Virus record (IMG/VR): IMGVR_UViG_3300031578_000017
From: a virus
Reading direction: 5' to 3' (one strand)
Length of the DNA stretch: 64,000 nucleotides
Position 1 is the stretch's first letter. Each line of letters begins with the position of its first letter. The notes below the pieces were generated by a model. It saw only the letters and a list, made by a program, of their open reading frames with translations, had not been told where the DNA came from and searched no databases. The position numbers and the translations under genes were made by a program. Positions 1-49,959 of the stretch are shown in pieces.

Positions 1-224
1 ATGGCTTCACCAGTTCCCAACGTTTGGCAAATTCCTGCCAAAAGTTCGGCCTCAGTTTTCCAAGGCTCATCTCCACACGAAAACTTTTGCATGAGTTCGA
101 AGCCGTCTCCGTAGTATGAAATGGTTGTAGTGCCAGAGTCCTCATGAACAATGGCATGGCCCATTTCAGTCTCCACTACTTTCATGGTGCATGTACTGAA
201 CTGCAAGTTTTTGAACTGTAACAT
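1..224 (-). CDS. hypothetical protein, runs off the window edge
   Basis: ATG at 224 with AAGGGG RBS; MLQFKNLQFSTCTMKVVETEMGHAIVHEDSG... open to position 1; promoter at 269-301. Confidence 0.6.
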   Translation of the reverse strand, partial: MLQFKNLQFSTCTMKVVETEMGHAIVHEDSGTTTISYYGDGFELMQKFSCGDEPWKTEAELLAGICQTLGTGEA

Positions 225-268
225 GTTTTGACCCCTTTATTCAGTGGGCACCCTATGTACCCAAATAC

Positions 269-301
269 AGTTTACCTTCCAAAACACCTCTAGGCAAGTC
301 C
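269..301 (-). promoter_or_regulatory. sigma70-like promoter
   Basis: GGAC-TTGCCT-N17-TAAACT; near-twin at 1033-1065. Confidence 0.6.
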
Positions 302-354
302 TAAACAGTTCCTATTTTAAATGCTTAGAATTCATTCAGATTCTATAATAAAAT

Positions 355-383
355 AATGGAGGTGGTTGTTAGCCACCTCCATT
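355..383 (-). terminator. intrinsic terminator
   Basis: 11-bp stem AATGGAGGTGG/CCACCTCCATT followed by ATTTT on the minus strand, just after the 403-963 stop. Confidence 0.7.
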
Positions 384-402
384 TTCACGACCCAAGGGTT
401 CC

Positions 403-963
403 TTACTGGCCCTTGGCCTTCAGGTTGGCCTCGACTTCGGCAAAGATGCCCTCAGTGCCGGTAGCGTTCACGCTACCAGTCTTTCCGTAGTACGCGAACA
501 CGCTTGCCGCGAAGGGCAGTAGCGTTTCCACCTTGCCGTGGTTGTCACCGCTGAGCTTTGCCCACCACGCCTTTTCAGGGGCGATATAGCCTGTACAGCC
601 CTTTTCCTCCTTGACCTCACCCTTCAAGGCATCCTGCGTACTGTGGCAGAACGCACCACCGGCGAACACAAACGCCAATGACGCGAGGCGTTGGGCCATC
701 TTGTTATTGGGGTTCACTGGCACCCCAATGACGTTACAGGCGGTTTCGTACAAGGCGACCGCCAGAGCCCGTTTGTTGAGTCCACCCTTGTTGTGGGTAG
801 GAACGGCAACCTTTTCGGTGCCAAGTTCCAATTCCGCAATAGGCAACTGCTTCGCGACTGCAAGCAGCACCTTGGAAGCGACTACCGGAGTCGATTCCGA
901 GTTGACCTTGGCCTTACGGCTCTTTTTGGCCTTGGTTTCCAACATGGCTTCCTGTTCACTCAT
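403..963 (-). CDS. early hypothetical protein with Lys-rich N-terminus (probable paralog of 15205-15732)
   Basis: 186 aa ORF, RBS and own promoter; KRALAVA motif shared with 15205-15732. Confidence 0.75.
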   Translation of the reverse strand: MSEQEAMLETKAKKSRKAKVNSESTPVVASKVLLAVAKQLPIAELELGTEKVAVPTHNKGGLNKRALAVALYETACNVIGVPVNPNNKMAQRLASLAFVFAGGAFCHSTQDALKGEVKEEKGCTGYIAPEKAWWAKLSGDNHGKVETLLPFAASVFAYYGKTGSVNATGTEGIFAEVEANLKAKGQ

Positions 964-1032
964 CCTACACCTGCCTTTCTTTTACAAACCTCACAGCGGT
1001 TTGGCTCGGCGCATTGCCTTGCCTATGTTTAC

Positions 1033-1065
1033 AGTTTACCTTCAACAGATTTTCATTGCAAGTCC
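1033..1065 (-). promoter_or_regulatory. sigma70-like promoter
   Basis: GGAC-TTGCAA-N17-TAAACT. Confidence 0.65.
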
Positions 1066-1319
1066 TTTATTGGGTTCTACGATAGGTTGTTTGAATTCGT
1101 TCAATCAATTCTTTTGAATCACACTATTCTATTAATCACTTGCCATCCCTTATGATAGAAATTAAAAATGAAATCAATTTTCTATAAACAACCAATAGAT
1201 AAAATATCCAAACCAGAATAGAATGTATGTGATTCCAAATATATACACGATTTCTCTAAAGATATTTTTGATGTTACTCCATTCACCACTGAATTTATAA
1301 TTTCTATTCATCAGTTTCC

Positions 1320-1595
1320 TCACTCACATTTATTTTTCACTCGTTTTCCCAATGTCTTCTCTAAGTCCTTATAAGTCTGTTCGTTACATCCTATTCCTAA
1401 CGATACTGACCACGGATCATCCATCCGAATATGATCTTCATAAACAGAAATGTATCCTGCAGAAATGATTTTTCTACCATTAGCCATACGAAAATGAGAT
1501 AAACCGAATTCTGTCACAAGTTCAAATTCAAATTCACAATCTTCTAATTGAATGAAACGGTAAAATTCTCCAACTTCTAACTCATTAGCCTTCAT
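1320..1595 (-). CDS. hypothetical protein
   Basis: 91 aa, ATGA overlap with upstream gene. Confidence 0.65.
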   Translation of the reverse strand: MKANELEVGEFYRFIQLEDCEFEFELVTEFGLSHFRMANGRKIISAGYISVYEDHIRMDDPWSVSLGIGCNEQTYKDLEKTLGKRVKNKCE

Positions 1596-1984
1596 TTCTC
1601 ACTCTCCTCAAAACAAGTATCACCAGATTCCTCGTCATATATTGCTTCATCTTCCGCTACATCATTTTCAAGTTTGTCTTGATCAGCTCTGTCATGTTGT
1701 ATATCAGGCCAATACACAATGATTCCACGCCCCATCGAGTCCTGGCAAGTATTCTGAATCATAGTTTCCATATCTTCAAGCAAAAATTCTTTAGTTTGAG
1801 CGCTTGCCTTTTGTGTCATTAAGAAAATGACATTCAACACCTCACCCATATTATCACAAACTAATCCAAGACATTCCTTTCCAAACATACACCTACCACT
1901 ATATGATCTGACACTTACACGTTCAAGATCAATTTCTTTAACAACTTCAAACATCAGCTTTGCCATGTTGCTTGCCATGATCAA
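1592..1984 (-). CDS. conserved phage hypothetical protein (YSGRxMFGxxCLG motif)
   Basis: motif recalled from small phage proteins; AAGGAGG RBS; coupled to neighbours. Confidence 0.7.
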   Translation of the reverse strand: MIMASNMAKLMFEVVKEIDLERVSVRSYSGRCMFGKECLGLVCDNMGEVLNVIFLMTQKASAQTKEFLLEDMETMIQNTCQDSMGRGIIVYWPDIQHDRADQDKLENDVAEDEAIYDEESGDTCFEESEK

Positions 1985-2412
1985 TCCTCCTTCTTAAATG
2001 GGGTTTCTTTTTGGCTGTGGCGGGTGAAATCAATATCAAAAAATTTCACTCCACGTGTGTAAGTACCATTGAGGCTTACCTTTACAATGACTCCAACAAA
2101 AACTTCAACACCATTATGCTCATCAATTTCAAACGGTACAAAGCATTCCCAACTCACACCCAAATGCCATTTTTGTTTCTTATTCTTATAAATCTTTGCC
2201 AATTCGGCACAAGCATTGTGGATAATCTTCTGTACATTTGGGTTTTCACTTAAAAGTAACCCAACATCACATGAATCAGGCCAAATTTGTTTCTGCTGCT
2301 TTGCCAAATCTTCGAGAACACAAAGTGCTTCTTTACCTGGAAACATTTGCTCACCCCTTTCTGCGGCAACCCTATGTTGCCTAAAAGGTTTATACTTTCT
2401 AAATGTATTCAT
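1981..2412 (-). CDS. hypothetical protein
   Basis: 143 aa, AGGAG RBS, ATGA overlap. Confidence 0.65.
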   Translation of the reverse strand: MNTFRKYKPFRQHRVAAERGEQMFPGKEALCVLEDLAKQQKQIWPDSCDVGLLLSENPNVQKIIHNACAELAKIYKNKKQKWHLGVSWECFVPFEIDEHNGVEVFVGVIVKVSLNGTYTRGVKFFDIDFTRHSQKETPFKKED

Positions 2413-2442
2413 TGCAACTCCTATTAAAACTATTACGAACCA

Positions 2443-2688
2443 TTATTTCTTAAAATTTCTAATATAACTTAATGTTCGTGAATTTCTGGCATGTTCTAAA
2501 GCTCTCATCCTAATAAAAACTTCAATATCTGTTTGATTCCATACACGAAATGGTTGTCTAATTCCTGGTATACGAATTATTGGTAAACCGTTTTTTCTCG
2601 CAAAGTATGAACATACATTAATTCCTACTCCAGTTTTATTAGAAACTTGTCCTGTTGTAAACAAAAGATTCTCGTATAATTTAGCCAT
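2443..2688 (-). CDS. MerR/excisionase-like HTH DNA-binding protein
   Basis: FTTGQVSNKTGV...Y....GL P..R..G...R.WNQTDI pattern. Confidence 0.6.
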   Translation of the reverse strand: MAKLYENLLFTTGQVSNKTGVGINVCSYFARKNGLPIIRIPGIRQPFRVWNQTDIEVFIRMRALEHARNSRTLSYIRNFKK

Positions 2689-2694
2689 TTTATT

Positions 2695-2997
2695 TCACTT
2701 TCCTGATTGTTTTCCCATTCTAAATATTAATGCTCTTTCGTGTTCGATAATAAAATCTGAAAGTTGTCTTGGCACTCTCATAACAGATCTTTCTTGATAA
2801 ATACCTTTCTTATATCTGTATCCATAATAATATCCACCAATAGGATTATACCAGAATCCCATTACTTGATTTTCATCAATCTGTATTTCTTTTAAAGGTT
2901 TATTCCTTTCATTCCATTCTTTATTATTTTTCTGTTCAACTTCAGATAATTCGTCCATGACACTAGTCCACTTTTCGTACCATGTTTCTTTTGCCAT
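2695..2997 (-). CDS. hypothetical protein
   Basis: 100 aa, GGAGGTG RBS. Confidence 0.65.
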   Translation of the reverse strand: MAKETWYEKWTSVMDELSEVEQKNNKEWNERNKPLKEIQIDENQVMGFWYNPIGGYYYGYRYKKGIYQERSVMRVPRQLSDFIIEHERALIFRMGKQSGK

Positions 2998-3046
2998 TCC
3001 ACACCTCCTTAAACACTTTTAACCCCTACCAGTACACCACTTTACA

Positions 3047-3484
3047 CTATTTGAGTGTCGTAGACGCATCTGTGCAAATGTGTTTTAGTTCCTGGCTGCT
3101 GGTTACACCACTACTTACTAACAACTCCCAAGTTTTGTGGAGTTCACTGAGCAAACTAATCACTTCTACGATTGGATCTTTTCTTCTTTCAACTATAGCG
3201 TCAGAAAGTCTATCTTGTACATATTCATAGATTTTTCTTAAGTTATTTGCTAGATCTTTTGTAGAATTATCTTTTGCATTACAATTCAAAGACTGATTTA
3301 AAACATTAATGATATATCGTGCATATGTAATATGTTGAAATCCATCAGCATAAGATTGTGCATCAGTTTTATCAAATAAATCTGCTGCTATTTTCAAATC
3401 TTTAAGTGCTTTGTCATAAAGCAGTTCAATTAATTTTCCTGGTGATGCATTATCAACCAGAGTTTTTATCTCATCGTTTGTCAT
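3047..3484 (-). CDS. fliS: flagellin export chaperone FliS homolog
   Basis: ASPGKLIELLYDKAL..L..A; YARYIINVLNQSL; LANNLRKIYEYVQDRL; PIVEVISLLSELHKTW match the FliS consensus along the whole length. Confidence 0.85.
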   Translation of the reverse strand: MTNDEIKTLVDNASPGKLIELLYDKALKDLKIAADLFDKTDAQSYADGFQHITYARYIINVLNQSLNCNAKDNSTKDLANNLRKIYEYVQDRLSDAIVERRKDPIVEVISLLSELHKTWELLVSSGVTSSQELKHICTDASTTLK

Positions 3485-3879
3485 GCATCCTCCCAGTATT
3501 TTTCAACTAAATCTTTGGAAGACTTCAAACACAGGTTGGTCAAAGAACGAATTTCTTTAATTGCTTGAATCTTACCACTGTGCATGTTTGTATGAGATCT
3601 AATTATTCTTTCATTACACTTACAAATTCTAACAATAGTTTTCACAACTTCAATTGTATCAAGACGTTGAGGTGGAATTATTTCTTGATATGTTTTAATT
3701 CCTGGAACATCTTTCTTTTCGAGACTAACAATTCTCTCTTCAACTATTTTTAAATAACTGTTCATCTCATCAATAGTGTTTTGTAAATCCATCAACTTAC
3801 GCTCAGTAGGACCCATTTCTATCTCCTTTGTAGCCCTTGCTGCACTAAAGGTATATAACCATCTGCGAAATTCTAACAC
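3481..3879 (-). CDS. coiled-coil protein with C-terminal ribosomal protein L7/L12-CTD-like domain
   Basis: KIQAIKEIRSLTNLCLKSSKDLVE resembles the bL12 motif KIxVIKxVRxxTGLGLKEAKDLVE; start codon uncertain. Confidence 0.7.
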   Translation of the reverse strand: MLEFRRWLYTFSAARATKEIEMGPTERKLMDLQNTIDEMNSYLKIVEERIVSLEKKDVPGIKTYQEIIPPQRLDTIEVVKTIVRICKCNERIIRSHTNMHSGKIQAIKEIRSLTNLCLKSSKDLVEKYWEDA

Positions 3880-3885
3880 AAATCC
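3848..3885 (-). promoter_or_regulatory. phage early promoter, ACCT family
   Basis: GGAT-TTGTGT-N17-TTATAT-ACCTT. Confidence 0.6.
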
Positions 3886-3902
3886 TTTATTGTTTTGTAA
3901 GA

Positions 3903-4121
3903 TTACATAACAACAGGTGAGATTCTTGTGAGATTTTTGCCTGAAGGCCAGTCTTGAACATCAATAGACTTTTTCTCTTTGAGTACCATATCACACAATT
4001 TCTTTTCTAATTCATATTTATTGTTTGCTTCTATATAATGGCCTTCTCTTGCTGTGACATCATTGTGTCCCAAACTACCTTCAGGGTAGAAATGAGGAAA
4101 CGTTACTCTTGCTTTAACCAT
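3903..4121 (-). CDS. hypothetical protein
   Basis: 72 aa with AGGAG RBS. Confidence 0.6.
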   Translation of the reverse strand: MVKARVTFPHFYPEGSLGHNDVTAREGHYIEANNKYELEKKLCDMVLKEKKSIDVQDWPSGKNLTRISPVVM

Positions 4122-4131
4122 GCCCCTCTCC

Positions 4132-4392
4132 TTAGTATCCGTACCTATTGTAAGGAAATGCTTTTCGAAGCACTTCCTTTCTTTCTTCTTTTTCTAAAAC
4201 CCTGAAAGCTGCAACTGCTTCTTCATCATCACCATACATACTAAAAGAATCTGCATCCAATACAACTTCAATGACAAGTTCTCTAGTTATGTCTTTTTTA
4301 CCATTAGCTTCTAAGATGTCAGCACCAATTGCATCCCATGTATTATTTAATGCATCTATTATACGACTTTCCATTGTTGAATCTAACTTCAT
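4132..4392 (-). CDS. hypothetical protein
   Basis: 86 aa with GGAGG RBS. Confidence 0.65.
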   Translation of the reverse strand: MKLDSTMESRIIDALNNTWDAIGADILEANGKKDITRELVIEVVLDADSFSMYGDDEEAVAAFRVLEKEERKEVLRKAFPYNRYGY

Positions 4393-4557
4393 TTATCCCT
4401 CCAATTCTTTAAGTTCTGACTGAGATTTCTTAAGAATTTCTTGCCTTGTTTTTATCTGTAATTCTAATACACGAATTTCTTCTTGTAACATAATAATCCT
4501 ATCTTCACGCTTTGTGTCTTTCAACAAACTTTCTGGCATCTTGTTCTTTAAATCCAC
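4393..4557 (-). CDS. small coiled-coil protein (not in ORF track)
   Basis: GGAG RBS plus GTG; 54 aa; TAA abuts the next ATG. Confidence 0.55.
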   Translation of the reverse strand: MDLKNKMPESLLKDTKREDRIIMLQEEIRVLELQIKTRQEILKKSQSELKELEG

Positions 4558-4568
4558 GATTTTCTCCT

Positions 4569-4784
4569 TTATCTCTCAACTATGCAGTAATTATCACTTC
4601 TTCCTGTTTCTGCCATGTATTTTTCAAGTTCAGGTATACGAGATTCACATTCTGCAAGAGAACCAAATCCACTCCAATCTCCATAATGACAAGTAATTAA
4701 GAAATTATAATTATTAACTGGTCCATTAGGTTTTCCAATCTTAACCATTTTGCCATCACGCGAATGCCAAATCGTATTTCCCAT
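4569..4784 (-). CDS. hypothetical protein
   Basis: 71 aa, GGAGG RBS. Confidence 0.6.
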   Translation of the reverse strand: MGNTIWHSRDGKMVKIGKPNGPVNNYNFLITCHYGDWSGFGSLAECESRIPELEKYMAETGRSDNYCIVER

Positions 4785-4785
4785 A

Positions 4786-5061
4786 TTACCCTCCTAACAC
4801 AATGTCAATGTGGCGACAATGCCCACGGTAACGGAAACCTGGACAAGAACACCTTACTTGTCCTTTTTTATCTGTAGAAACTACTTGGTAAGTTCCAGGT
4901 TTAGAACTACTTTCAACACGACCAAGGATTTTAGGTTGAAACAACTGTGGTTGTGGATTTTTAGCTTTTACTCTTTCGCGCCAACCAAGAGCAGCTTTCT
5001 GAAACATCGCCATCACTTGCGCATGGCGTTCCGTACTAATTGTAGAACCGATGGTTTCCAT
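4786..5061 (-). CDS. SWIM zinc-finger protein
   Basis: CSCPGFRYRGHCRHI = CxC-x7-CxH SWIM signature. Confidence 0.75.
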   Translation of the reverse strand: METIGSTISTERHAQVMAMFQKAALGWRERVKAKNPQPQLFQPKILGRVESSSKPGTYQVVSTDKKGQVRCSCPGFRYRGHCRHIDIVLGG

Positions 5062-5081
5062 TACCTAAACCCCTTTGCCTA

Positions 5082-5119
5082 AAGGTATAATATAATCTTG
5101 CCACATTCTAAACAAATCC
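5082..5119 (-). promoter_or_regulatory. phage early promoter, ACCT family
   Basis: GGAT-TTGTTT-N17-TATTAT-ACCTT; AAGATTATATTATACCTTT identical to the copy at 14926-14960. Confidence 0.7.
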
Positions 5120-5139
5120 TTTTACAACTCATTTGACAA

Positions 5140-5406
5140 TTATTGAGACATACTAATAAAGAAATCTTTAATCATTTCCCAACAACCAATTTCATACAAA
5201 TAATAGATTCCACCAGCAACCATTGTCATTAACAACATCTGAAATCGTGAATGTCTACGATGATACTTATCCATTGTTTCGTTGAGCTTTTTGGTTTTAG
5301 CTTCTTTCACCATATCTGCGATAATTAATCTTTCTGCATATCCATCAACTCTTGATGGTTTTTCATCAAAACTATCTTCAATTTCTAACCTAGTGTCTAA
5401 AGCCAT
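5140..5406 (-). CDS. small membrane protein
   Basis: one hydrophobic segment FQMLLMTMVAGGIYYLY; AAGGAG RBS. Confidence 0.6.
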   Translation of the reverse strand: MALDTRLEIEDSFDEKPSRVDGYAERLIIADMVKEAKTKKLNETMDKYHRRHSRFQMLLMTMVAGGIYYLYEIGCWEMIKDFFISMSQ

Positions 5407-5486
5407 GATTATCTCCTTTACCTATAAGCGGTTAACCTTAATCTAGTCGGCCCCGATAGCACCGCAAGGTTCTGAGGCGACAATCC

Positions 5487-5663
5487 TTACTCTTTAACTT
5501 CTTCCTTCGGATAGCGACGGTCAATTTCCTTCTTATTGCAGAAGCAACAGGTGGACTTTGAAATGTTGTGTCCATCAACAGAGTTTTTGATGCGAGCCCT
5601 TGTGAGACTCAAACCACACTTGGTCGTGGTTGCATTCTTCAGAACAACATGTTTCCTATTCAT
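5487..5663 (-). CDS. small Cys-containing basic protein (not in ORF track)
   Basis: MNRKHVVLKNATTTKCG...CCFCNKKEIDRRYPKEEVKE, 58 aa, GGGG RBS. Confidence 0.5.
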   Translation of the reverse strand: MNRKHVVLKNATTTKCGLSLTRARIKNSVDGHNISKSTCCFCNKKEIDRRYPKEEVKE

Positions 5664-5720
5664 TTTCTACCCCTTTGTTGATCGCAGCCTATTCTGCGAT
5701 GCCTTTACTACCCAAATACA

Positions 5721-5900
5721 CTATACAGTCTTGGGTTTTTCTTTGCTACTCTTTATTTGCTTTCTAATTAAGTTTGTAAGAGTGTTTTTCATTACAGTCT
5801 TATGGACTCTGATTTTTCCAGGTTCGTTTTTAGTCGGAATTTCTAGCTCTTTTTCTTTCTTGGTGATTCGTGGATAATGTAATCCTGAAAATCTGCGCAT
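5721..5900 (-). CDS. small basic protein (not in ORF track)
   Basis: 59 aa, AAGGAG RBS. Confidence 0.5.
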   Translation of the reverse strand: MRRFSGLHYPRITKKEKELEIPTKNEPGKIRVHKTVMKNTLTNLIRKQIKSSKEKPKTV

Positions 5901-5920
5901 GAGTTTTCTCCTTTATATTA

Positions 5921-6157
5921 TTACTTATTTCTACAATCTTTACACATATCTACAAAAATCAAATTTTCTAATAGTTCTCCTTCATTTTCTAATTGTTTTA
6001 CCTTTTCTAATGCGTCTGTAAATTTTTCATATTCTTCTCTATCTTTATCATAGAAATATGTATGATTGAATTCAATCATACATACACTACATTCAAATTT
6101 GATTGTTAATGGTGGATATTTCTTTAATAACTTAAAGAGTTTTGCATCCATTATCAT
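5921..6157 (-). CDS. small Zn-finger protein
   Basis: CSVC...CKDC. Confidence 0.55.
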   Translation of the reverse strand: MIMDAKLFKLLKKYPPLTIKFECSVCMIEFNHTYFYDKDREEYEKFTDALEKVKQLENEGELLENLIFVDMCKDCRNK

Positions 6158-6195
6158 ACAAATATAACTTTAGGAGATTATCTTATAAATAAAGC

Positions 6196-6225
6196 GGGAC
6201 CAGGAGCATAGGGTCTCCTGGTCCC
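6196..6225 (-). terminator. intrinsic terminator
   Basis: 11-bp stem GGGACCAGGAG/CTCCTGGTCCC then GCTTTATTT. Confidence 0.65.
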
Positions 6226-6259
6226 TAACCTACAGTCTAGTGCGAGGAGGAGGGGTGTC

Positions 6260-6544
6260 CTACCGCACTCTACTGTAGACTTCCATTGTGCCACGCATTT
6301 CAAGTTCTGCGATGGCTTGCTGTTTCAACCAAGTCCAACGCAACTGAAGTTTTGCAACGACTATCGGTCGGAACTCACCCTGCTCCAATTGCTGCTTAAT
6401 CGTTTGGTCAACGAGTTTCTCAATCTCAACATGCTTCCACATTAACAATTCCTCATCAGAGGTTTTGTTATTTATTCGCTGCCCAATCTCCTTTACAATA
6501 AATTCCGACTCCACGTTCTGGTTAACTAACTGGTTGACTGTCAT
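6260..6544 (-). CDS. hypothetical protein
   Basis: 94 aa, GGGG RBS, upstream promoter TTGTGT-N17-TAAGCT (6601-6633). Confidence 0.65.
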   Translation of the reverse strand: MTVNQLVNQNVESEFIVKEIGQRINNKTSDEELLMWKHVEIEKLVDQTIKQQLEQGEFRPIVVAKLQLRWTWLKQQAIAELEMRGTMEVYSRVR

Positions 6545-6651
6545 GGCCCAACCCCCTATCTTTTTAAGGGGTTCCTATTAACCCCTTACCCTACACTTGC
6601 AGCTTACAATCTAAAAACACTCAACACAAATCCTATTGCAAGTCTTTTGAA

Positions 6652-6930
6652 TTAGCTATTGTGTGCTGTTTCTATTTCTTTAAGTTTCTTTGCCTTTTCA
6701 ATTCCTAGTTCAGTCAAACAGATGGTTTCGCTTGTAGATTTCCAATAATTCATCATATCACCAATTTCCATCAGTTTATTAAAGTAATCAATATTATGTC
6801 CTTGGTGCATGAATCCTAAATACATTGGTCCCTTGGGAGTTGGTGTTGTGCCTTTATCAAGTTCATAGGCAGTAGAAAGAATAACAGATAAGTGAAGCAT
6901 TATTCGCTGTACTTCTGCATCTCTTGACAT
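6652..6930 (-). CDS. hypothetical (winged-helix-like C-terminus)
   Basis: ICLTELGIEKAK wing-like motif; promoter GAT-TTGCAA-N17-TATACT at 6979-7010. Confidence 0.55.
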   Translation of the reverse strand: MSRDAEVQRIMLHLSVILSTAYELDKGTTPTPKGPMYLGFMHQGHNIDYFNKLMEIGDMMNYWKSTSETICLTELGIEKAKKLKEIETAHNS

Positions 6931-7205
6931 GACTTTCTCCTTTCGTGTTAATCCTTGACAACCTTACTGCACAACCTAAGTATAAAATCTAACATTGTTC
7001 ATTGCAAATCAAATATAAACTTTTAAGACTAGATTTTTCCCGTAAAAGTTACCGATAATCAAATAATAAAGGTATGTATATAGCGATTGTTATGAGCATA
7101 GGGGAATTTTTATTTCTTCTCTTTTAAATATGAAATTATGAAAATATGGATATTGTATCGTAACTAGTCTGCATTGTCTTTCTCCTTTGCTTGGTCCACG
7201 GAAAA

Positions 7206-7709
7206 CTACTCCCTGATTGCGTTCTTCATGGCGTGTTCAATGGCTCGATTGCCTAGCCCGATGGCCGACAACTGTGCGCCCAACTCGCTCAACTCCTCAC
7301 TGACAACAGACTCTATGTACGAATCTTCACTGTCTGATTCAATTCCCCATAGGCCACCGCTTCGGATGGTTTGACATACTCCGCCTATTACAACTGTTGC
7401 CTTTGCGACGATTCCGAGAAAGCACCACCCGCCATTTTGCAAAGATTCCATGCGTGAAAAGTCCTGTTTCCCGTACGTGATGTATTCTTTTGTACCCGGC
7501 TTTTCTCCTCCCGCGTAGGGTATGAAGAACCGGTATTCCCGGCCCTTGTCTGGCGTCTCGTGTTCATCTCCGCATAGCGATAGGTACTCGCCGCAATGCC
7601 GGCAGATAGCCCAGTCGGACGCGGTATCCGTGTATTCCCCGATGTAGGATACGTCCGGGTCAACGTCCGACTCTGTTACGACTCTCACTTCGGTAATGTG
7701 CGCTTTCAT
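7206..7709 (-). CDS. conserved phage hypothetical protein
   Basis: 167 aa, AAGGAGG RBS, CxxC and GLWGIESDS motif. Confidence 0.7.
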   Translation of the reverse strand: MKAHITEVRVVTESDVDPDVSYIGEYTDTASDWAICRHCGEYLSLCGDEHETPDKGREYRFFIPYAGGEKPGTKEYITYGKQDFSRMESLQNGGWCFLGIVAKATVVIGGVCQTIRSGGLWGIESDSEDSYIESVVSEELSELGAQLSAIGLGNRAIEHAMKNAIRE

Positions 7710-7763
7710 CCGGCCTCCTTCGCGACTTTAACGCCCTGCGTCCCCTTAGCCTTTGTCGAGTCC

Positions 7764-8003
7764 TCACTGACAGCACTCGGCTTGATGTGGGCATCGGCGC
7801 TTGATCTTGTACGCTTCCGGCTGGCACGTTAGCCAAACAACATCGTCGGTGTGCTCAATCTTATCCAGCACGCAGCACCCGTGGTATCGCCAGTAAAATA
7901 CCGTGCCGTCTGCGGCTACATGTACCCTGGCTATCCCTTGATCTGCGCTATTGTGCCAGTGAATGTAGTCCCACCCAAACAGAAAATGAAGTAACCGCCA
8001 CAT
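7764..8003 (-). CDS. hypothetical protein (start MWRLLHF)
   Basis: AAGGAG RBS 6 nt before ATG at 8003. Confidence 0.65.
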   Translation of the reverse strand: MWRLLHFLFGWDYIHWHNSADQGIARVHVAADGTVFYWRYHGCCVLDKIEHTDDVVWLTCQPEAYKIKRRCPHQAECCQ

Positions 8004-8074
8004 CGCTAACTCCTTTCGGAGGTAATTTCGCTTTCGTTCCGACGTGCAACCGCTGCACGTCCGCGTGGTTCCTC
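8004..8074 (-). repeat. structured intergenic element, copy A (GAGGAAC-hairpin-AAAGnGAAATTACCT-hairpin/SD)
   Basis: 49/55 nt identical to 12785-12839; 8-bp stem GACGTGCA/TGCACGTC; CTCC-GAAA-GGAG hairpin contains the SD. Confidence 0.8.
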
Positions 8075-8077
8075 TGG

Positions 8078-8275
8078 TTATCTTAAACACCTGAACACTT
8101 TTGGAATGCGAAATCTACTCGGCATGTCGCTGTAAAGAGGCACGTCTCGTTCGTCGAAAAGCCGACGACTGAAACACCAGTCTGCAAAATCGAATCCGTG
8201 CCACGATCCGCAAGTAAACCATCTGTGCATCCACATTTTATTGCGGCGCTTACGTCTGGCTGCATTCTTGCCCAT
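8078..8275 (-). CDS. small basic hypothetical protein
   Basis: 65 aa, AGGAGG RBS. Confidence 0.6.
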   Translation of the reverse strand: MGKNAARRKRRNKMWMHRWFTCGSWHGFDFADWCFSRRLFDERDVPLYSDMPSRFRIPKVFRCLR

Positions 8276-8290
8276 GTGTGGTTCCTCCTA

Positions 8291-8498
8291 TTAACTTGCG
8301 CACGACGAAACGAAATGCACACCCTCGTCATCGAGAGGTATTTCAGTCAACGACCAATCTTCCTTTTCAGATTTCGGAAGCTCGTGCAGGGCCAAGCCCA
8401 AGGCCACGCTTTCACTTGTAGCCACAATCACAAACTCTTTATTCTCATATCCTCCGTACTTCAACTGACTGCTGTACGAGGCGTTAAACACTTTCATC
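8291..8498 (-). CDS. hypothetical protein (start MKVFNASY)
   Basis: GGAGG RBS before ATG at 8498. Confidence 0.6.
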
Positions 8499-8531
8499 TG
8501 GCGTCCTCCCTGACAGTTAATTGCATTTATC

Positions 8532-8807
8532 TTACATCCTATGTATACCAGATAACTCTCCAGCATACTTGCGCTCTTCTTCAAGCATTGCCTGTTCTTT
8601 GGCAACCTGATCTACGGTCTTAATAATCGGACCCTTAATAAAGGTTTTCATATATCCTGACTGCACCAAATCAGACTTAGTCAACGCGAATCTGCTACGT
8701 CGAAATCCAAACACTTTGGTAAGTTTAAGATCTGCTAATTCTGCCTTTTTCTTTCGTTGTGTAGCCAAGTCCAGATGAGAGAGTTTCGGTCTTCCACGTT
8801 TAGCCAT
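8532..8807 (-). CDS. basic hypothetical protein (AT-hook-like KRGRPK N-terminus)
   Basis: 91 aa; promoter GAT-TTGCTT-N17-TATATA-CCTT at 8851-8886. Confidence 0.6.
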   Translation of the reverse strand: MAKRGRPKLSHLDLATQRKKKAELADLKLTKVFGFRRSRFALTKSDLVQSGYMKTFIKGPIIKTVDQVAKEQAMLEEERKYAGELSGIHRM

Positions 8808-9959: not shown

Positions 9960-10090
9960 GTTGCTCTCCTTTAAACCCTTAACCCATAGGTATTAAACAC
10001 TCTACACCGTTTCAACACAAGTCTTAAGTTAAATTGTTTGAAATTAAGGTCACGCCAGCAGCCTAATCGAAGCGACTAGGGGCAGTAAAC

Positions 10091-10381
10091 CTAGTCCCTA
10101 CTGGCGTGACCACTCTCCCTTGGGTAATGAAAGGGTCTAGAATCGGTATCGTTTGGATCTTCTAACTTTATATCACTTCCAGGAACTTGTTGCCATTTTT
10201 CACCACCCAATAATTCTTGTAAGACTATAACTGTTATCTTTTCATTATTTGTTGTGTCTGCCATCATTCTAAATATACGCAAAACTCCTTGGTCACAACA
10301 CATTTCATCACACAAGGTTGGTTTATCTTCAGAAGTATATGTTAAACCATCTTCCGTTTGATACATATAAATTGTTTTCAT
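10091..10381 (-). CDS. hypothetical protein
   Basis: 96 aa, GAGG RBS. Confidence 0.6.
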   Translation of the reverse strand: MKTIYMYQTEDGLTYTSEDKPTLCDEMCCDQGVLRIFRMMADTTNNEKITVIVLQELLGGEKWQQVPGSDIKLEDPNDTDSRPFHYPRESGHASRD

Positions 10382-10697
10382 TTTGCCTCTCCCATTGGTT
10401 CCTAGACAACTTTAAACCTTGCACTACCTGCCATACACAAACGGTTTAGAATATACTCCACGACACAGCTAAATAGTCGTTGATAACCATTTTATTGTTA
10501 GGCACAGCACATATAATGTACAAATTATTTCATTTTCCATCTTAAGCAAGAATGTGTTTCTACGTGAACTTTATTCGTGATCTTGCATTTTATCCAATTA
10601 ATGGGTCTATTAAACCATTTAGGATCAACATATCCAACAACATCTTTGTGATATTTGCAGTATCTACATATTTTTCTCATTTCGTTATTCCTTTAAG

Positions 10698-32208: not shown

Positions 32209-32547
32209 CTAGTTCTCTTTTTCTGCCTTAATTGCAGATTCATCGGTTTTCCAATTTAAATCACCATTATCTTTTTTATATAGATGGTTCCATTCATGTC
32301 TTAGTAATTCCTTATTTCTTTCTAAACCTTGATCTAATATAACAATTCTTCTTTCCTCAACAGGATCTTCACACCAAGCTGATGCATCAGCTCTAACAAC
32401 CCAAACTAATGTTTTCTTTTTTAAAGGATATTTCTTCATCAATTTTTCTATCTCTGGTAATAACTCTCTAGTATTGGATGGATTTACTGTTTCTTCACAG
32501 TATCCAAATAAAGAAATAAAACATAAGAATAATATTATCTTTTTCAT
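32209..32547 (-). CDS. exported zincin-like protein
   Basis: signal peptide; LRHEWNH (HExxH) plus distal E. Confidence 0.55.
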   Translation of the reverse strand: MKKIILFLCFISLFGYCEETVNPSNTRELLPEIEKLMKKYPLKKKTLVWVVRADASAWCEDPVEERRIVILDQGLERNKELLRHEWNHLYKKDNGDLNWKTDESAIKAEKEN

Positions 32548-34931
32548 TTTATCAACACCATGCGAATCTCACCTGGAGAATATTCTCTGCCATTAAACGG
32601 TTGACAATATCTAAATCCAATCTTTCTGCTTATATTTACTAACGTCTTTGAATCTAAACAAAGGTTATGAAAATTCGCAGCATAAGTCTGTCCACTAAAT
32701 AATTTCAAATTTGCCCACATACTTGGACTTAAATCTCCATAATATTTCCTTATATTTGTTTCGTCGTCTGGATGTTCTTTTGAAATTTTATTATTTCTAT
32801 ACATGTTTGCAATATATTCAAGATTAGGAGTGCGAATAAATAATTTTCCATTGGTACAAAGTAAACGATACCAATCTTCTAAAACTGGAATCAATTTTAA
32901 CCAACCCAAATGTTCTATAACATGATTGGCTAATATTTCTGAAACTTTTTGATCGCCTATAGGAATCTTTTTACTAATATCCCAATTTATTTCTAAATGA
33001 GGTAGTTGCCCACGTTCATCTATACTTTGTATATCTACATGTATGTATCCTTTATTTGGATCAAACCCAGAACCAAATTCCAAACGATAAGGTGGAAAAA
33101 TTGGTACATTAAATTCTCTTTCACAATATACAGGCATTTCGTTTATAAATTTATCTTTCCATTTTTCTTTCAAAAGGTAAACATTGTTTTGATCAAATTC
33201 TTTTTCTAATCCATACGTTATTCCTTCATAATGAATAAATTCTATACGATTATCGTAAATAACTGCTTTGTTTTTTTCAAAACACATACGCAAACAAAAA
33301 TCTGTATCTTCAGCAGATTGATTAAATCTTTCATCAAAACCGTTTAAATCTATCCAATCTTTTTTACGCACAGCTATGAATGCACCTGTGACACAATCAT
33401 AATTTCTTCTTTCACAAGCATACTTATAATTTCTTGGAAGATGTTTATAGATATGCCTAAAATGTTTACCATCACAAACACATCCAGCATGTTGAATTGT
33501 CATGTTTGGATACAATAACTTAGCTCCCACTATACCAACTTTTTCATCTTCCAGATTTTCCCATACATACTTTAACCAATCTTTAGTTAATAATTCTGTA
33601 TCGTTATTTAATAGAATTATTGTCTCACCTTTTGCTTCTTTTACTGCTCTATTACAATTCTTTGTAAATCCTACTTTCTCTTCATAATATTTTACATTGC
33701 ATAGCTTGTCAAATATTTTTAATCTATTTCTTGTATCTTCTTTAGAAGAATCATCTGCTATTATTATTTCAGCACAACTCATCCACTCGCTTTGCATCAA
33801 AATTGACATTATGCATCTATAAGTATACTCGTATTTATTGTACGACGGGACTATAATTGAAAAATTTGGTCTAATGTTTCCATAAAATTCTTTGATCTTT
33901 GTATGTATAAGTTTGCTATCTAAATTTTTCATATCATCAATACATTCTTGTATATTTTTAGGTTCAAATTCAGATGGTATAGGATTCAAATGGTGGATGC
34001 CTGAGGTATGTCCATCATGTTGTGTAGCTAAAGGTATCCACCTTTGAGGCAATCTCTTGTTTGGATCTGTGATACCAAATATAGAAAACACTGGCTTATT
34101 CAAAGCGACACCTAAATGCATAATTCCAGAATCTATACAGATTAATCCTTCAGAATGTTGGATAATTGCAGCTATTATACGAATATTATTATGCTTCAAC
34201 ATTGGTATATTCAATTGTGAAAACTTTTGTTCACCTCTTCCAACCTCTATAATATTATAATCTTTAAACATTTTTTCTGCCATTATTTTCTTTATAAGAT
34301 CTTCCCAATTGTGCCATCTTCTTGTCAACCAATCACATTCTGTATGAATGACAAAAAATTTTTTATGATTTATTTTATTCAATATCATGCTTGCTTCTTT
34401 TAATTCTTGTTCTGTTAAATAAAGTTCCGGTTTATAATCATCTACATCTATTCCAATTCTTTCAGCATAAGCCTTTACTACGTGTACACTTGGATTAAAT
34501 TCATAAGATAAAAAATATGTTCTATCAAATTTAGAATAATCTTCTTTTATGGGAATAATATTGTCAACGTTTGGATTATTTTGTAACATCTGTGGATGAT
34601 CTGTAGATACAGTTATATGAATGTCCTTATATATTTCTTTTATCTTTTTAATGATAGGCGTTACAAGTAACACATCTCCTCTTGCACCATATCTAACTAG
34701 ACATATTTTTATATTTGAATCTTTTTTCTCTTCATAAAGTTTTGGAATATCTTTAATAAAATCTTCTATTTTAAATCTACAAAATGATTTCTTTAAATCA
34801 AGCAAATGTTTTTCTAAACAGATATTGAATTTTTCACCCATAATATTTTTCCCTACAAATAAAACATGGGCTGACGTTCTGTCAACCCATGCTTTTGAAT
34901 AATCAAAATTATTACGCTGAATGTGCAACAA
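32544..34931 (-). CDS. tri-domain glycan enzyme: GT9 (heptosyltransferase-like) + GT2 + SAM methyltransferase
   Basis: RYGARGDVLLVTP and IDSGIMHLGVAL..P..SIFG (GT9); IIVPSYN, DDSS, LLNNDT, VTGAF, EDTDFCLR (GT2); LEFGSG, NHVIEHL, WYRLL (MTase). Confidence 0.85.
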   Translation of the reverse strand: MLHIQRNNFDYSKAWVDRTSAHVLFVGKNIMGEKFNICLEKHLLDLKKSFCRFKIEDFIKDIPKLYEEKKDSNIKICLVRYGARGDVLLVTPIIKKIKEIYKDIHITVSTDHPQMLQNNPNVDNIIPIKEDYSKFDRTYFLSYEFNPSVHVVKAYAERIGIDVDDYKPELYLTEQELKEASMILNKINHKKFFVIHTECDWLTRRWHNWEDLIKKIMAEKMFKDYNIIEVGRGEQKFSQLNIPMLKHNNIRIIAAIIQHSEGLICIDSGIMHLGVALNKPVFSIFGITDPNKRLPQRWIPLATQHDGHTSGIHHLNPIPSEFEPKNIQECIDDMKNLDSKLIHTKIKEFYGNIRPNFSIIVPSYNKYEYTYRCIMSILMQSEWMSCAEIIIADDSSKEDTRNRLKIFDKLCNVKYYEEKVGFTKNCNRAVKEAKGETIILLNNDTELLTKDWLKYVWENLEDEKVGIVGAKLLYPNMTIQHAGCVCDGKHFRHIYKHLPRNYKYACERRNYDCVTGAFIAVRKKDWIDLNGFDERFNQSAEDTDFCLRMCFEKNKAVIYDNRIEFIHYEGITYGLEKEFDQNNVYLLKEKWKDKFINEMPVYCEREFNVPIFPPYRLEFGSGFDPNKGYIHVDIQSIDERGQLPHLEINWDISKKIPIGDQKVSEILANHVIEHLGWLKLIPVLEDWYRLLCTNGKLFIRTPNLEYIANMYRNNKISKEHPDDETNIRKYYGDLSPSMWANLKLFSGQTYAANFHNLCLDSKTLVNISRKIGFRYCQPFNGREYSPGEIRMVLIK

Positions 34932-47781: not shown

Positions 47782-49959
47782 CTAATCGACATCATCACCT
47801 ATTTCTTTTGCTTCAGTTGTATCGTCACTGTCTTCTTCAGAAGCTGGTAAATCACCACCCTCTTTTATTTTATCTATTATGAAATCATATATACTTTTTT
47901 CACCATTTTCTTTTGAAGATTTTTCAAATTCTTCTATGAAACTGATAGCAGAATTTTTTCCTACTCCTAGTTGCATTTTATCTTCCTTAAGACCTGTAAT
48001 TGAGTATGTCTTACCTTCCTTAACTATTACTCCCATCAACAATCCTGTACTTAATAAATTTCTTGCAAGATCGAATCCTTTACTAAAAATTAAATCTGCT
48101 TCACAAATTCTAAATGGTGGAGCAACTTTATTTTTCTTAATCGTAAGTTTAGTTGTACATCCTATTGATTTACCTTTAGTTCCTATCTCACCAGTTCTAC
48201 GTACATCTACACGAACCGATGCATAGAATTTCAAAGCTCTTCCACCAGAAGTTGTTTCAGGTGAATTGTGAACTATGACACCATTTGGTCCACCGACAAT
48301 ATAGTTGTGATTATCTTCAATTTCTAAATCATATTTATATCGTTTTCTACCTTTGGTATGTCTATAATTTATTTCTTTTTTAAGAATTTCTACTGGAATG
48401 TTTTCATTCACAATGTCTATTTCACACTTATTTTCTAATTTAGGAATATTGCAAAATTTTGAATGTAATTTATAATGCATACATTCAGGCACATATTTGG
48501 ATATTGCTTTATGAAAAGAAAATGTTTGTTCACCACCATTAAAATACAATCCTTTTCCAATTTTTACCTGTGGTTTTTTAATTCCTAAAGATTCTATCCA
48601 ATTTGCTGCACAATTTAATTGTTCTTCATTCATCAATTTAGAACAAATTGATGTTCTACCAGCACCCCACAATTCTTTAGTTAGTACATAAGTTCCATCG
48701 TCTAAATACCAAATAGTCAAAGCTAATAAACCACATTCTTTAAATCCAAACCAATCGTTTTTAAATTTATAATTCCCATTACAAATTTCTTTTCTATATT
48801 TTTCTAATCTGATATCTGCATTAGTATCATATCTAAAATTTGTTGTATTGTTTTCTTGCTTTACTTCTCCACCTAAAATTGGTTTAAATAAATTTGCTTT
48901 CCATCTAATATATCCTTCTTGTTCTTTACAATGACCCAACCTAAATCCAGATTTATGATAACTAATTTTTCTTAAAGAACCGTCTCCCAACATAGAACCT
49001 ATAAGTAAATCTTTAAAATATTTACAATCTTTATGTGAATCATAACTTAACAAAAAATCTCCAACTCTAAAATCACCAGCATTTTTTTCTATATATTTTC
49101 CATTGTCACATAAAATCATTTTATGATTAGATGTTACTCTAAATTTAGAATATCCACATTTATTTGGAGCAGTTGTTTTGAATTCTAAAAAATTATCTTC
49201 TACACCATTATTAAACCATCCAATTATGTTTTTAGATTCTATAGTATTTGATTCTTTATTTAAAGATAATACCTTAACGTCTTTTTTCTGATTTACTATT
49301 TTACCGATTTTTTCAGTAGTACCATCTGCTAAACAAATTCGCGAATCATAATCAAAACATCCCCATCGAACTCCAATCTTTTCACGTATTTGATTGATGA
49401 ATATGGCGGTACATTCTGTGCGTGAAATTATTGAAGTCAGTTTTCGCATTGCCTGTGACATTAATCTTGCTTGTAACCCCATATGTGACTCGCCATACTC
49501 ACCTTCTAATTCTGCCCTTGGTACTAATGAAGATACTGAATCTACCACAACTATATCAATTACACCACTTTCAATAAAATGCTGTGTCAATGTTAAACAT
49601 TCTTCGGCATGAGATGGTTGACTTAAAAGTAACTTATCTAAATCCACACCTAATCGTTTACACCAAGCTGGATCTAAAGAATGTTCCATATCACCATACC
49701 ATGCCCAAGCTCCCTGTTTTTGTGCTTGTGCAATCGTAGTCAAAGCAGCAGTTGTCTTACCTGAAGATTCAGGTCCATAAATTTCTATGATACGTCCTTT
49801 AGGAAAACCTCCTACACCTATAGCTAAATCAAGTTGAGGTATTCCTGTTTTCCAAGCTGGTACTATCTTAATAGCCTTTTCTGTCAATTTCATTACTATC
49901 GAATTCTCACTGAACTTTTCGCGAGTCTTCGCAATTAAGTCGTCTAACGAAATTCCCAC
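47782..49959 (-). CDS. recA: RecA recombinase (intein-containing)
   Basis: [55 protein letters not shown]. Confidence 0.95.
48265..49359 (-). mobile_element. 365-aa intein with LAGLIDADG homing endonuclease in RecA
   Basis: begins CFDYDSRI after GVRWG, ends VIVHN before S; [11 protein letters not shown] and IWYLDDG motifs. Confidence 0.95.

Follow-up and report, generated by a model that had tools for sequence, protein, structure and literature searches.

The question raised by this locus is what kind of FliS, the flagellin chaperone, a phage would encode and what it could gain from doing so. The window, by which we mean the whole stretch of DNA that was analysed, comprises 64,000 nucleotides of the IMG/VR virus record IMGVR_UViG_3300031578_000017, and an earlier note made from its sequence had proposed that a phage-encoded FliS lies in its early region. 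The gene and its two neighbours are as follows.

3047..3484, minus strand: the FliS-like gene, whose product P0001 has 145 aa, comprising a four-helix FliS core between an N-terminal helix that is shortened and a tail of 20 disordered residues.
3481..3879, minus strand: the upstream ORF, encoding 132 aa with a coiled coil and a segment resembling the C-terminal part of bL12 (Pfam Ribosomal_L12, E 1.3e-6).
2695..2997, minus strand: the downstream ORF, encoding 100 aa, conserved in the related phage L105 and also lying beside fliS on an independent 1-kb contig.

There is little difficulty in assigning P0001 to its family. The Pfam FliS profile PF02561, for which the gathering score is 26.7 bits, matched the protein with an E value of 1.5e-21 and 77.3 bits, and sequence matches were also found among the solved FliS chains of Aquifex (1ORJ/1ORY), Salmonella (6CH3) and B. 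subtilis (5MAW). An AlphaFold2 model, built on an alignment containing 118 relatives, has a mean pLDDT of 89.7 and places helices at residues 3-12, 15-38, 42-64, 73-99 and 103-124. The predicted fold is an antiparallel four-helix bundle with a short N-terminal cap helix, and it superposes on solved FliS. When the model was compared with the PDB by Foldseek all 15 of the 15 best matches were FliS, with TM-scores of 0.87-0.91 by target and rmsd values of 1.7-1.9 A; the comparison with 6GOW_E gave a TM-score of 0.90 by target and an rmsd of 1.7 A. Together the HMM, PDB sequence and model-fold matches put the FliS family and fold of P0001 beyond doubt, and on both the profile hit and the four-helix fold (TM ~0.9 to solved FliS) the earlier note was right. 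Its statement that the protein follows the FliS consensus from end to end holds for the core, which is covered by profile positions 8-112 of 115, but fails at the N-terminus, where the docking motif is absent. P0001 also scores under the NCBIfam TIGR00208 equivalog cut-off (41.8 vs 53.75 bits), has features of its own, namely four residues inserted in a loop at 71-74 and a novel tail at the C-terminus, and is 36-49% identical to the cellular FliS of Planctomycetota, the nearest standing at 49%. It is a FliS by homology, but the equivalog score, the docking tyrosine and the operon context, taken as tests of functional equivalence, all tell against its being an ordinary one.

The window is a novel AT-rich large soil phage. 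Its genes include those for a DnaE-type polymerase, RNR, a ligase, a UvsX with an intein, DnaB, two helicases and a collagen-like tail fibre, and there are five tRNAs. Known phage polymerases share no more than 30% identity with the DnaE enzyme, and no near relative of the phage was found in 50,697 phage records or in IMG/VR by a 20-kb megablast and a polymerase peptide scan. A LAGLIDADG homing-endonuclease or intein-like segment, at residues of about 313-499, splits the UvsX-like recombinase gene (window 47782-49959).

Within this genome fliS belongs to a run of about 45 small ORFs on the same strand (1-16 kb), an arrangement typical of early regions. Its GC content of 32.6% and GC3 of 21.9% lie close to the medians for the window ORFs (32.9% and 25.8%, respectively), in agreement with the AT-rich, phage-like codons described earlier, and a gene with the phage's own composition is therefore an old resident and no stray host fragment. 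The soil runs X1-X4 contain contigs as long as 110-140 kb. One 10.3-kb contig from the X1 soil run covers window positions 1-7164, and in three soil runs the region is found on single contigs with a flat depth over 20 kb, so that a chimera with host DNA, which had been kept in mind as a threat to the phage origin, is excluded for practical purposes. It was correct as well that no other flagellar gene lies nearby: of 43 ORFs between 1 and 16 kb that were compared with Pfam, none belonged to another flagellar family, and 12 bacterial FlgL, FliW, CsrA, FlaG, FliD and FliT proteins gave no phmmer match to the six-frame translation of the 64 kb. The idea of a promoter-driven early operon found no support, since the 32 sigma-70-like sites observed are barely above the 21.9 +/- 4.3 seen in shuffles. 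The TGA of the 132-aa ORF overlaps the fliS start codon (ATGA), from which it follows that the two are probably co-translated.

The phage, at 33% GC, also contains GC-rich islands, comprising an ORF at 403-963 (GC 56.5%, GC3 69.5%) and ORFs at 7206-8605 (GC 46-53%), which have the appearance of recent acquisitions from DNA of high GC content. The ORF at 403-963 is 89% identical in L105, and a search of one planctomycete order with two of these GC-rich genes returned no match.

A related phage, represented by L105/L106, which are part of a 116-kb contig with a GC content of 38.8%, proved informative about the behaviour of the gene. The early region of L105 is collinear with that of the window at 50-89% amino acid identity, and its FliS (P0169) is 48% identical to P0001 and is its sister in the tree (support 97/88). 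In L105 the gene, at 10001-10387, has an unrelated 113-aa ORF after it and lies between ORFs homologous to window 5921-6157 and to window 5721-5900, while in the window fliS follows the ORF with the bL12-CTD-like segment. This 132-aa ORF is not conserved beside fliS in L105, having no similarity to the ORF after the L105 gene. That the slot of fliS and its neighbours differ in phages which are otherwise collinear points to a mobile single-gene unit.

The most telling difference between P0001 and its cellular counterparts is at the N-terminus, for which the following features of the sequence are relevant.

3449..3484, minus strand: codons 1-12, the remnant of the FlhA-docking helix (from the alignment; PMC5932034, PMC6070490).
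3488..3494, minus strand: GGGAGGA, a Shine-Dalgarno-like motif 4 nt 5' of the ATG (read from the sequence).
3503..3505, minus strand: an in-frame TGA seven codons 5' of the start (read from the sequence and the ORF list).

It has been established for Salmonella FliS that Ile7, Tyr10 and Val13 insert in a cleft of FlhA, that FlhA binding requires Tyr10, a residue said there to be absolutely conserved, and that in free FliS the same N-terminal helix is buried and autoinhibitory (PMC5932034). In B. subtilis, strains with the fliS delta2-18 or Y7A/Y10A allele behave as fliS deletion strains do when swarming and the secretion of flagellin are scored (PMC6070490). In P0001 the position of the conserved tyrosine (Tyr10 in Salmonella and Tyr10 in B. 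subtilis) is occupied by Glu5, encoded at 3470-3472, the hydrophobic positions on either side of it are taken by Thr2 and Thr8, and the residues which precede the tyrosine position are deleted. A glutamate facing the FlhA cleft, where the only charged residue in Salmonella is Asp456, would if anything repel. A longer N-terminus bearing the tyrosine is ruled out for P0001 by the upstream in-frame TGA, because neither a canonical start nor a tyrosine occurs between it and the ATG.

Among the 150 best relatives, in an alignment from an exhaustive HMMER search, the docking column is Tyr in 134, and the remaining 16 consist of 10 members of the query's own subfamily, 5 sequences which are cut at the N-terminus and 1 with Phe. 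P0001 retains nearly all of the core residues conserved in cellular FliS, and surface-forming conserved residues are also retained. Across the Tyr-less members L18, L22, Y23, A26, L30, A33, A55, I58, L62, L66, N81, L82, Y86, Y88, L93, E107, L115 and W119 are each kept in 7-10 of the 10. The docking residue has been removed selectively, while the core of FliS is intact.

A profile of the ten Tyr-less sequences from the query's subfamily was used to find further members and revealed a sharply bounded group, in which 27 clusters reached E <= 1e-40 while the one that came after them stood at 1e-20. It comprises 20 Tyr-less clusters and a set of Tyr-bearing proteins of 142 residues, to which the Tyr-less clusters are 41-84% identical, many of them 70-84%, with P0157 and P0160 at 80-84%. 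All of the Tyr-less clusters start a few residues before the tyrosine position, with a short acidic N-terminus and T, S, A, D or E in place of the tyrosine, and the start codons of these relatives are backed by Shine-Dalgarno motifs or upstream stops. The clear separation of the two sets extends to their gene contexts. Tyr-bearing members adjoin housekeeping genes and are found in fliD-fliS-fliT operons, with fliD directly upstream in 10 of 11 loci and fliT downstream in most, whereas in the same joint test none of the 20 Tyr-less loci had a flagellar neighbour. The docking tyrosine is missing in every relative found outside a flagellar operon, which amounts to 16 sequence types including the window protein.

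Three of these 16 types have clear phage hallmarks, namely the window, L105/L106 and L010, the last being a contig of 55 kb that encodes a large terminase (phrog_675, E 6e-48) together with a protein resembling tail fibres. Other Tyr-less contigs carry thymidylate kinase, TSCPD, Sequestin, GmrSD_N or HD phosphohydrolase genes and dense small ORFans; most of the loci are short contigs that may be viral. No partner gene is conserved beside fliS across the Tyr-less loci, and the GC content of the relatives, 55-65%, is far from the composition of the window gene. In close pairs from three lineages the dN/dS of the Tyr-less genes is 0.14-0.16, 0.24 and 0.40, and this purifying selection identifies them as genes for working proteins.

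Some of the Tyr-less loci have further peculiarities. P0005 (L006 1654-2319) and P0010 (L093 4267-4932) are Tyr-less fusions, one with a 100-residue N-terminal extension and the other with a 90-residue Cys-rich C-terminal extension, and no Pfam match is on record for these additions. TnpB/IS605-type genes are located 2-3 kb from a Tyr-less fliS in two unrelated phage-like contigs (L010 6035-7258 and L120 7248-8705). Nuclease-dead relatives of TnpB (TldR) are reported to repress flagellin genes from prophages (PMC13418256).

The view in the earlier note that FliS is not known as a characterised phage gene was borne out by the survey. P0001 belongs to no PHROG family, its model has no match at E <= 0.001 among the viral predicted structures of BFVD, and IMG/VR peptide scans with P0001, P0008 and P0010 returned no FliS relative. 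When four different FliS queries were compared with 50,697 phage records by tblastn, the only matches were two 'UNVERIFIED' faecal contigs, MT836588.1 and MT836129.1. The first of these (L100, 1-5748), a human faecal sequence entered as 'UNVERIFIED Bacteriophage sp.', was rejected as a source of phage FliS, as it is in fact a bacterial late-flagellar locus with the order flgL-fliW-csrA-flaG-fliD-fliS-fliT and probably represents bacterial DNA within a virome. The same study is the source of MT836129.1, which has a FliS match that is 67% identical. With one of the two matching contigs inspected (MT836588.1), no bona fide phage FliS was found among the 50,697 records. A full-text search found no papers on phage fliS, and the paper on flagellin-remodelling prophages makes no mention of FliS (PMC13418256). 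FliS itself is a known family; what is new is a phage FliS without the export-gate tyrosine.

It is suggested here that P0001 is a phage-adapted derivative of FliS, which serves as an export-incompetent trap for flagellin and stops filament growth during infection, and we would put the probability of this at about one half. Early in infection P0001 would bind the C-terminal D0 segment of the host's new flagellin, as FliS does. The resulting complex would be unable to dock on FlhA, the flagellin would stay in the cytoplasm and the growth of the filament would halt, P0001 acting in effect as a dominant-negative chaperone. Binding of flagellin may be expected from the fold, core and surface residues that have been kept. 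In free FliS the N-terminal helix acts as an autoinhibitory cap, so that its shortening may make binding easier. The presence of the same change in FliS copies outside flagellar operons speaks for removal of the docking residue as the very point of the adaptation, and such Tyr-less copies probably trap flagellin without any help to its export.

The earlier note had listed several ways in which a phage might manipulate host flagella, and among these sequestration of flagellin fits best, because the docking tyrosine is replaced by Glu5 and the segment before it deleted, and mutation or deletion of this segment abolishes export in Salmonella and B. subtilis (PMC5932034, PMC6070490); the purpose then given for it, a block to superinfection, stays a candidate. 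The shifts of FlgM/sigma28 or FliW/CsrA control that were also considered drew no support from the analysis. Possible gains to the phage are the saved cost of flagellin and type III export, the absence of new filament that could act as a decoy or as an entry route for flagellotropic phages, and an indirect shut-off of late flagellar genes. Flagella serve as phage receptors, and we know of no phage protein that acts on the flagellar export pathway itself.

Although trapping of flagellin is the reading we prefer, the most plausible of its rivals, doubtful as we find it, is that the client has changed. The FliS fold could hold some other amphipathic-helix protein in place of flagellin. This might be a host partner such as an anti-sigma factor, or a phage protein made early or destined for the virion, for which the translationally coupled 132-aa ORF with its coiled coil may be a candidate. 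With its nearest cellular FliS at just 49% identity, the protein could have exchanged its client, and the sub-threshold TIGR00208 score (41.8 vs 53.75 bits), the loop insertion at 71-74 and novel C-terminal tail of P0001, the ATGA overlap with the coiled-coil ORF and the extra N- and C-terminal extensions in P0005 and P0010 can all be read in the same way. However, identity to the host-type core is as high as 70-84% in many Tyr-less copies, which is hard to square with a new client, and the conserved surface-forming residues are kept. Nor is there a common neighbour across the loci to take the part of such a client, the partner ORF being different even between the window and L105.

Next in plausibility is a plain helper, an extra FliS which stabilises or exports flagellin so that the infected cell stays motile, and which docks by another route or in mixed complexes with the host FliS. 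A FliS-family protein with an intact core might be expected to do just this, and it is known that phages can remodel flagella to the benefit of the host, as with TldR and phage flagellin (PMC13418256). It is nevertheless improbable when it is considered that no copy found outside a flagellar operon has kept the docking tyrosine or the residues preceding it, that the same changes abolish export in two model bacteria (PMC5932034, PMC6070490), and that no flagellin or other flagellar gene lies alongside.

More improbable still is a role in the modification of flagellin, in which Tyr-less FliS would present unfolded flagellin to phage glycosyl- or methyltransferases and the host FliS would export the product, with a seroconversion-like change of the filament. 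This possibility is raised by a GT9 (heptosyltransferase-family) domain, the only similarity other than fliS between the window (32544-34931) and the unrelated L010 (4400-5959), by the large glycan island in the window and by the Methyltransf_21 gene found directly before fliS in L095. GT9 is common, however, and the stretch shared with L010 is short and weak (26% over 132 aa, E 1e-7). The glycan genes of the window are 27-34 kb away from fliS, no Maf- or FlmG-like recognition protein is present, and at the other Tyr-less loci no glycosyltransferase lies within reach. Finally, an artefact, whether host DNA misassembled in a phage contig or a decaying pseudogene, would suit the absence of FliS from phage catalogues otherwise, but it can safely be set aside given the single contigs that span fliS and its phage neighbours at flat depth in three soil runs, the phage-like GC3 so far from relatives of 55-65% GC, the orthologue in the related 116-kb phage, the intact reading frame and the purifying selection on the relatives.

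Comparison with known systems helps to define the proposed trapping of flagellin more closely. P0001 has the same fold and the same conserved core as cellular FliS (PF02561; 1ORY from Aquifex, 5MAW/6GOW from B. subtilis and 6CH3 from Salmonella with FlhA), but differs from it in having Glu5 for the docking tyrosine and the preceding residues gone, in its score below TIGR00208, in standing outside a fliD-fliS-fliT operon and in being encoded by a phage among early-type small genes. The phage proteins, with their truncation and loss of the tyrosine, carry the natural equivalent of the laboratory alleles, that is, B. subtilis fliS delta2-18 and Y7A/Y10A and the Salmonella Tyr10 substitutions. Tested as the only copy, those alleles are recessive nulls, and dominance over wild-type FliS when in excess is not reported for them in the two studies (PMC6070490, PMC5932034).

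A natural antagonist of the same step, delivery of the FliS-flagellin complex to FlhA, is found in FlaG of Campylobacter jejuni, which limits filament growth (PMC11536152), and the delivery step is therefore a natural control point. FlaG is a host protein of unrelated sequence and competes at FlhA, whereas the phage FliS is predicted to compete for flagellin. The prophages that carry TldR and a phage flagellin likewise manipulate the host's flagellin supply, but do so by RNA-guided transcriptional repression, swapping in the phage flagellin to the benefit of the lysogen (PMC13418256). The window has neither a flagellin gene nor TldR, and the action proposed for its FliS is post-translational.

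As to the origin of the gene, the Tyr-bearing members of the subfamily are the chromosomal FliS of one order of Planctomycetota. The 4.2-Mb genome G708 has two full-length FliS of the subfamily, at C122:2305-2730 and C1:22603-23028, which are 80% and 67% identical, respectively, to P0153, a cellular FliS like P0158; the first of these is the copy in its fliD-fliS-fliT operon. Four further genomes of this 20-genome order have copies at 47-54%. Searches of 151 Verrucomicrobiota and 151 Nitrospirota yielded no subfamily FliS at E <= 1e-25, and in 201 genomes of Acidobacteriota the best FliS match was 40% identical. On these sequence relationships it can be argued that the copies outside flagellar operons derive from the FliS of one planctomycete order, and plausibly the hosts of the phages with Tyr-less FliS are planctomycetes; for the AT-rich window phage a planctomycete host is only a lead. 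A flagellated host may reasonably be inferred, and the nearest cellular FliS is in Planctomycetota. No Tyr-less copy was seen in 401 sampled planctomycete genomes, so that there is no link through a prophage.

The tyrosine may have been lost once or several times. The best tree needs at least 6 changes, but a single Tyr-less clade is not rejected (AU p 0.13). More tentatively than for the window protein, and as a proposal we would ourselves lean against, the Tyr-less FliS may constitute an undescribed anti-flagellar family of phages, in which planctomycete-type FliS was captured, perhaps repeatedly, made into dominant-negative traps by the same N-terminal change and used by unrelated phages to stop filament assembly within minutes. 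If this were true, Tyr-less FliS would mark large hostless phages of soil and freshwater as viruses of flagellated Planctomycetota.

The sequence alone yields a specific and testable mechanism, that of a natural chaperone stripped of its delivery signal. If confirmed, P0001 and its Tyr-less relatives would constitute a new class of proteins for taking over the host, as well as a compact, naturally occurring inhibitor of flagellin export, in which a phage has turned a chaperone of its host into that chaperone's own antagonist. It would also provide a first handle on the hosts of a large uncultured group of soil phages.
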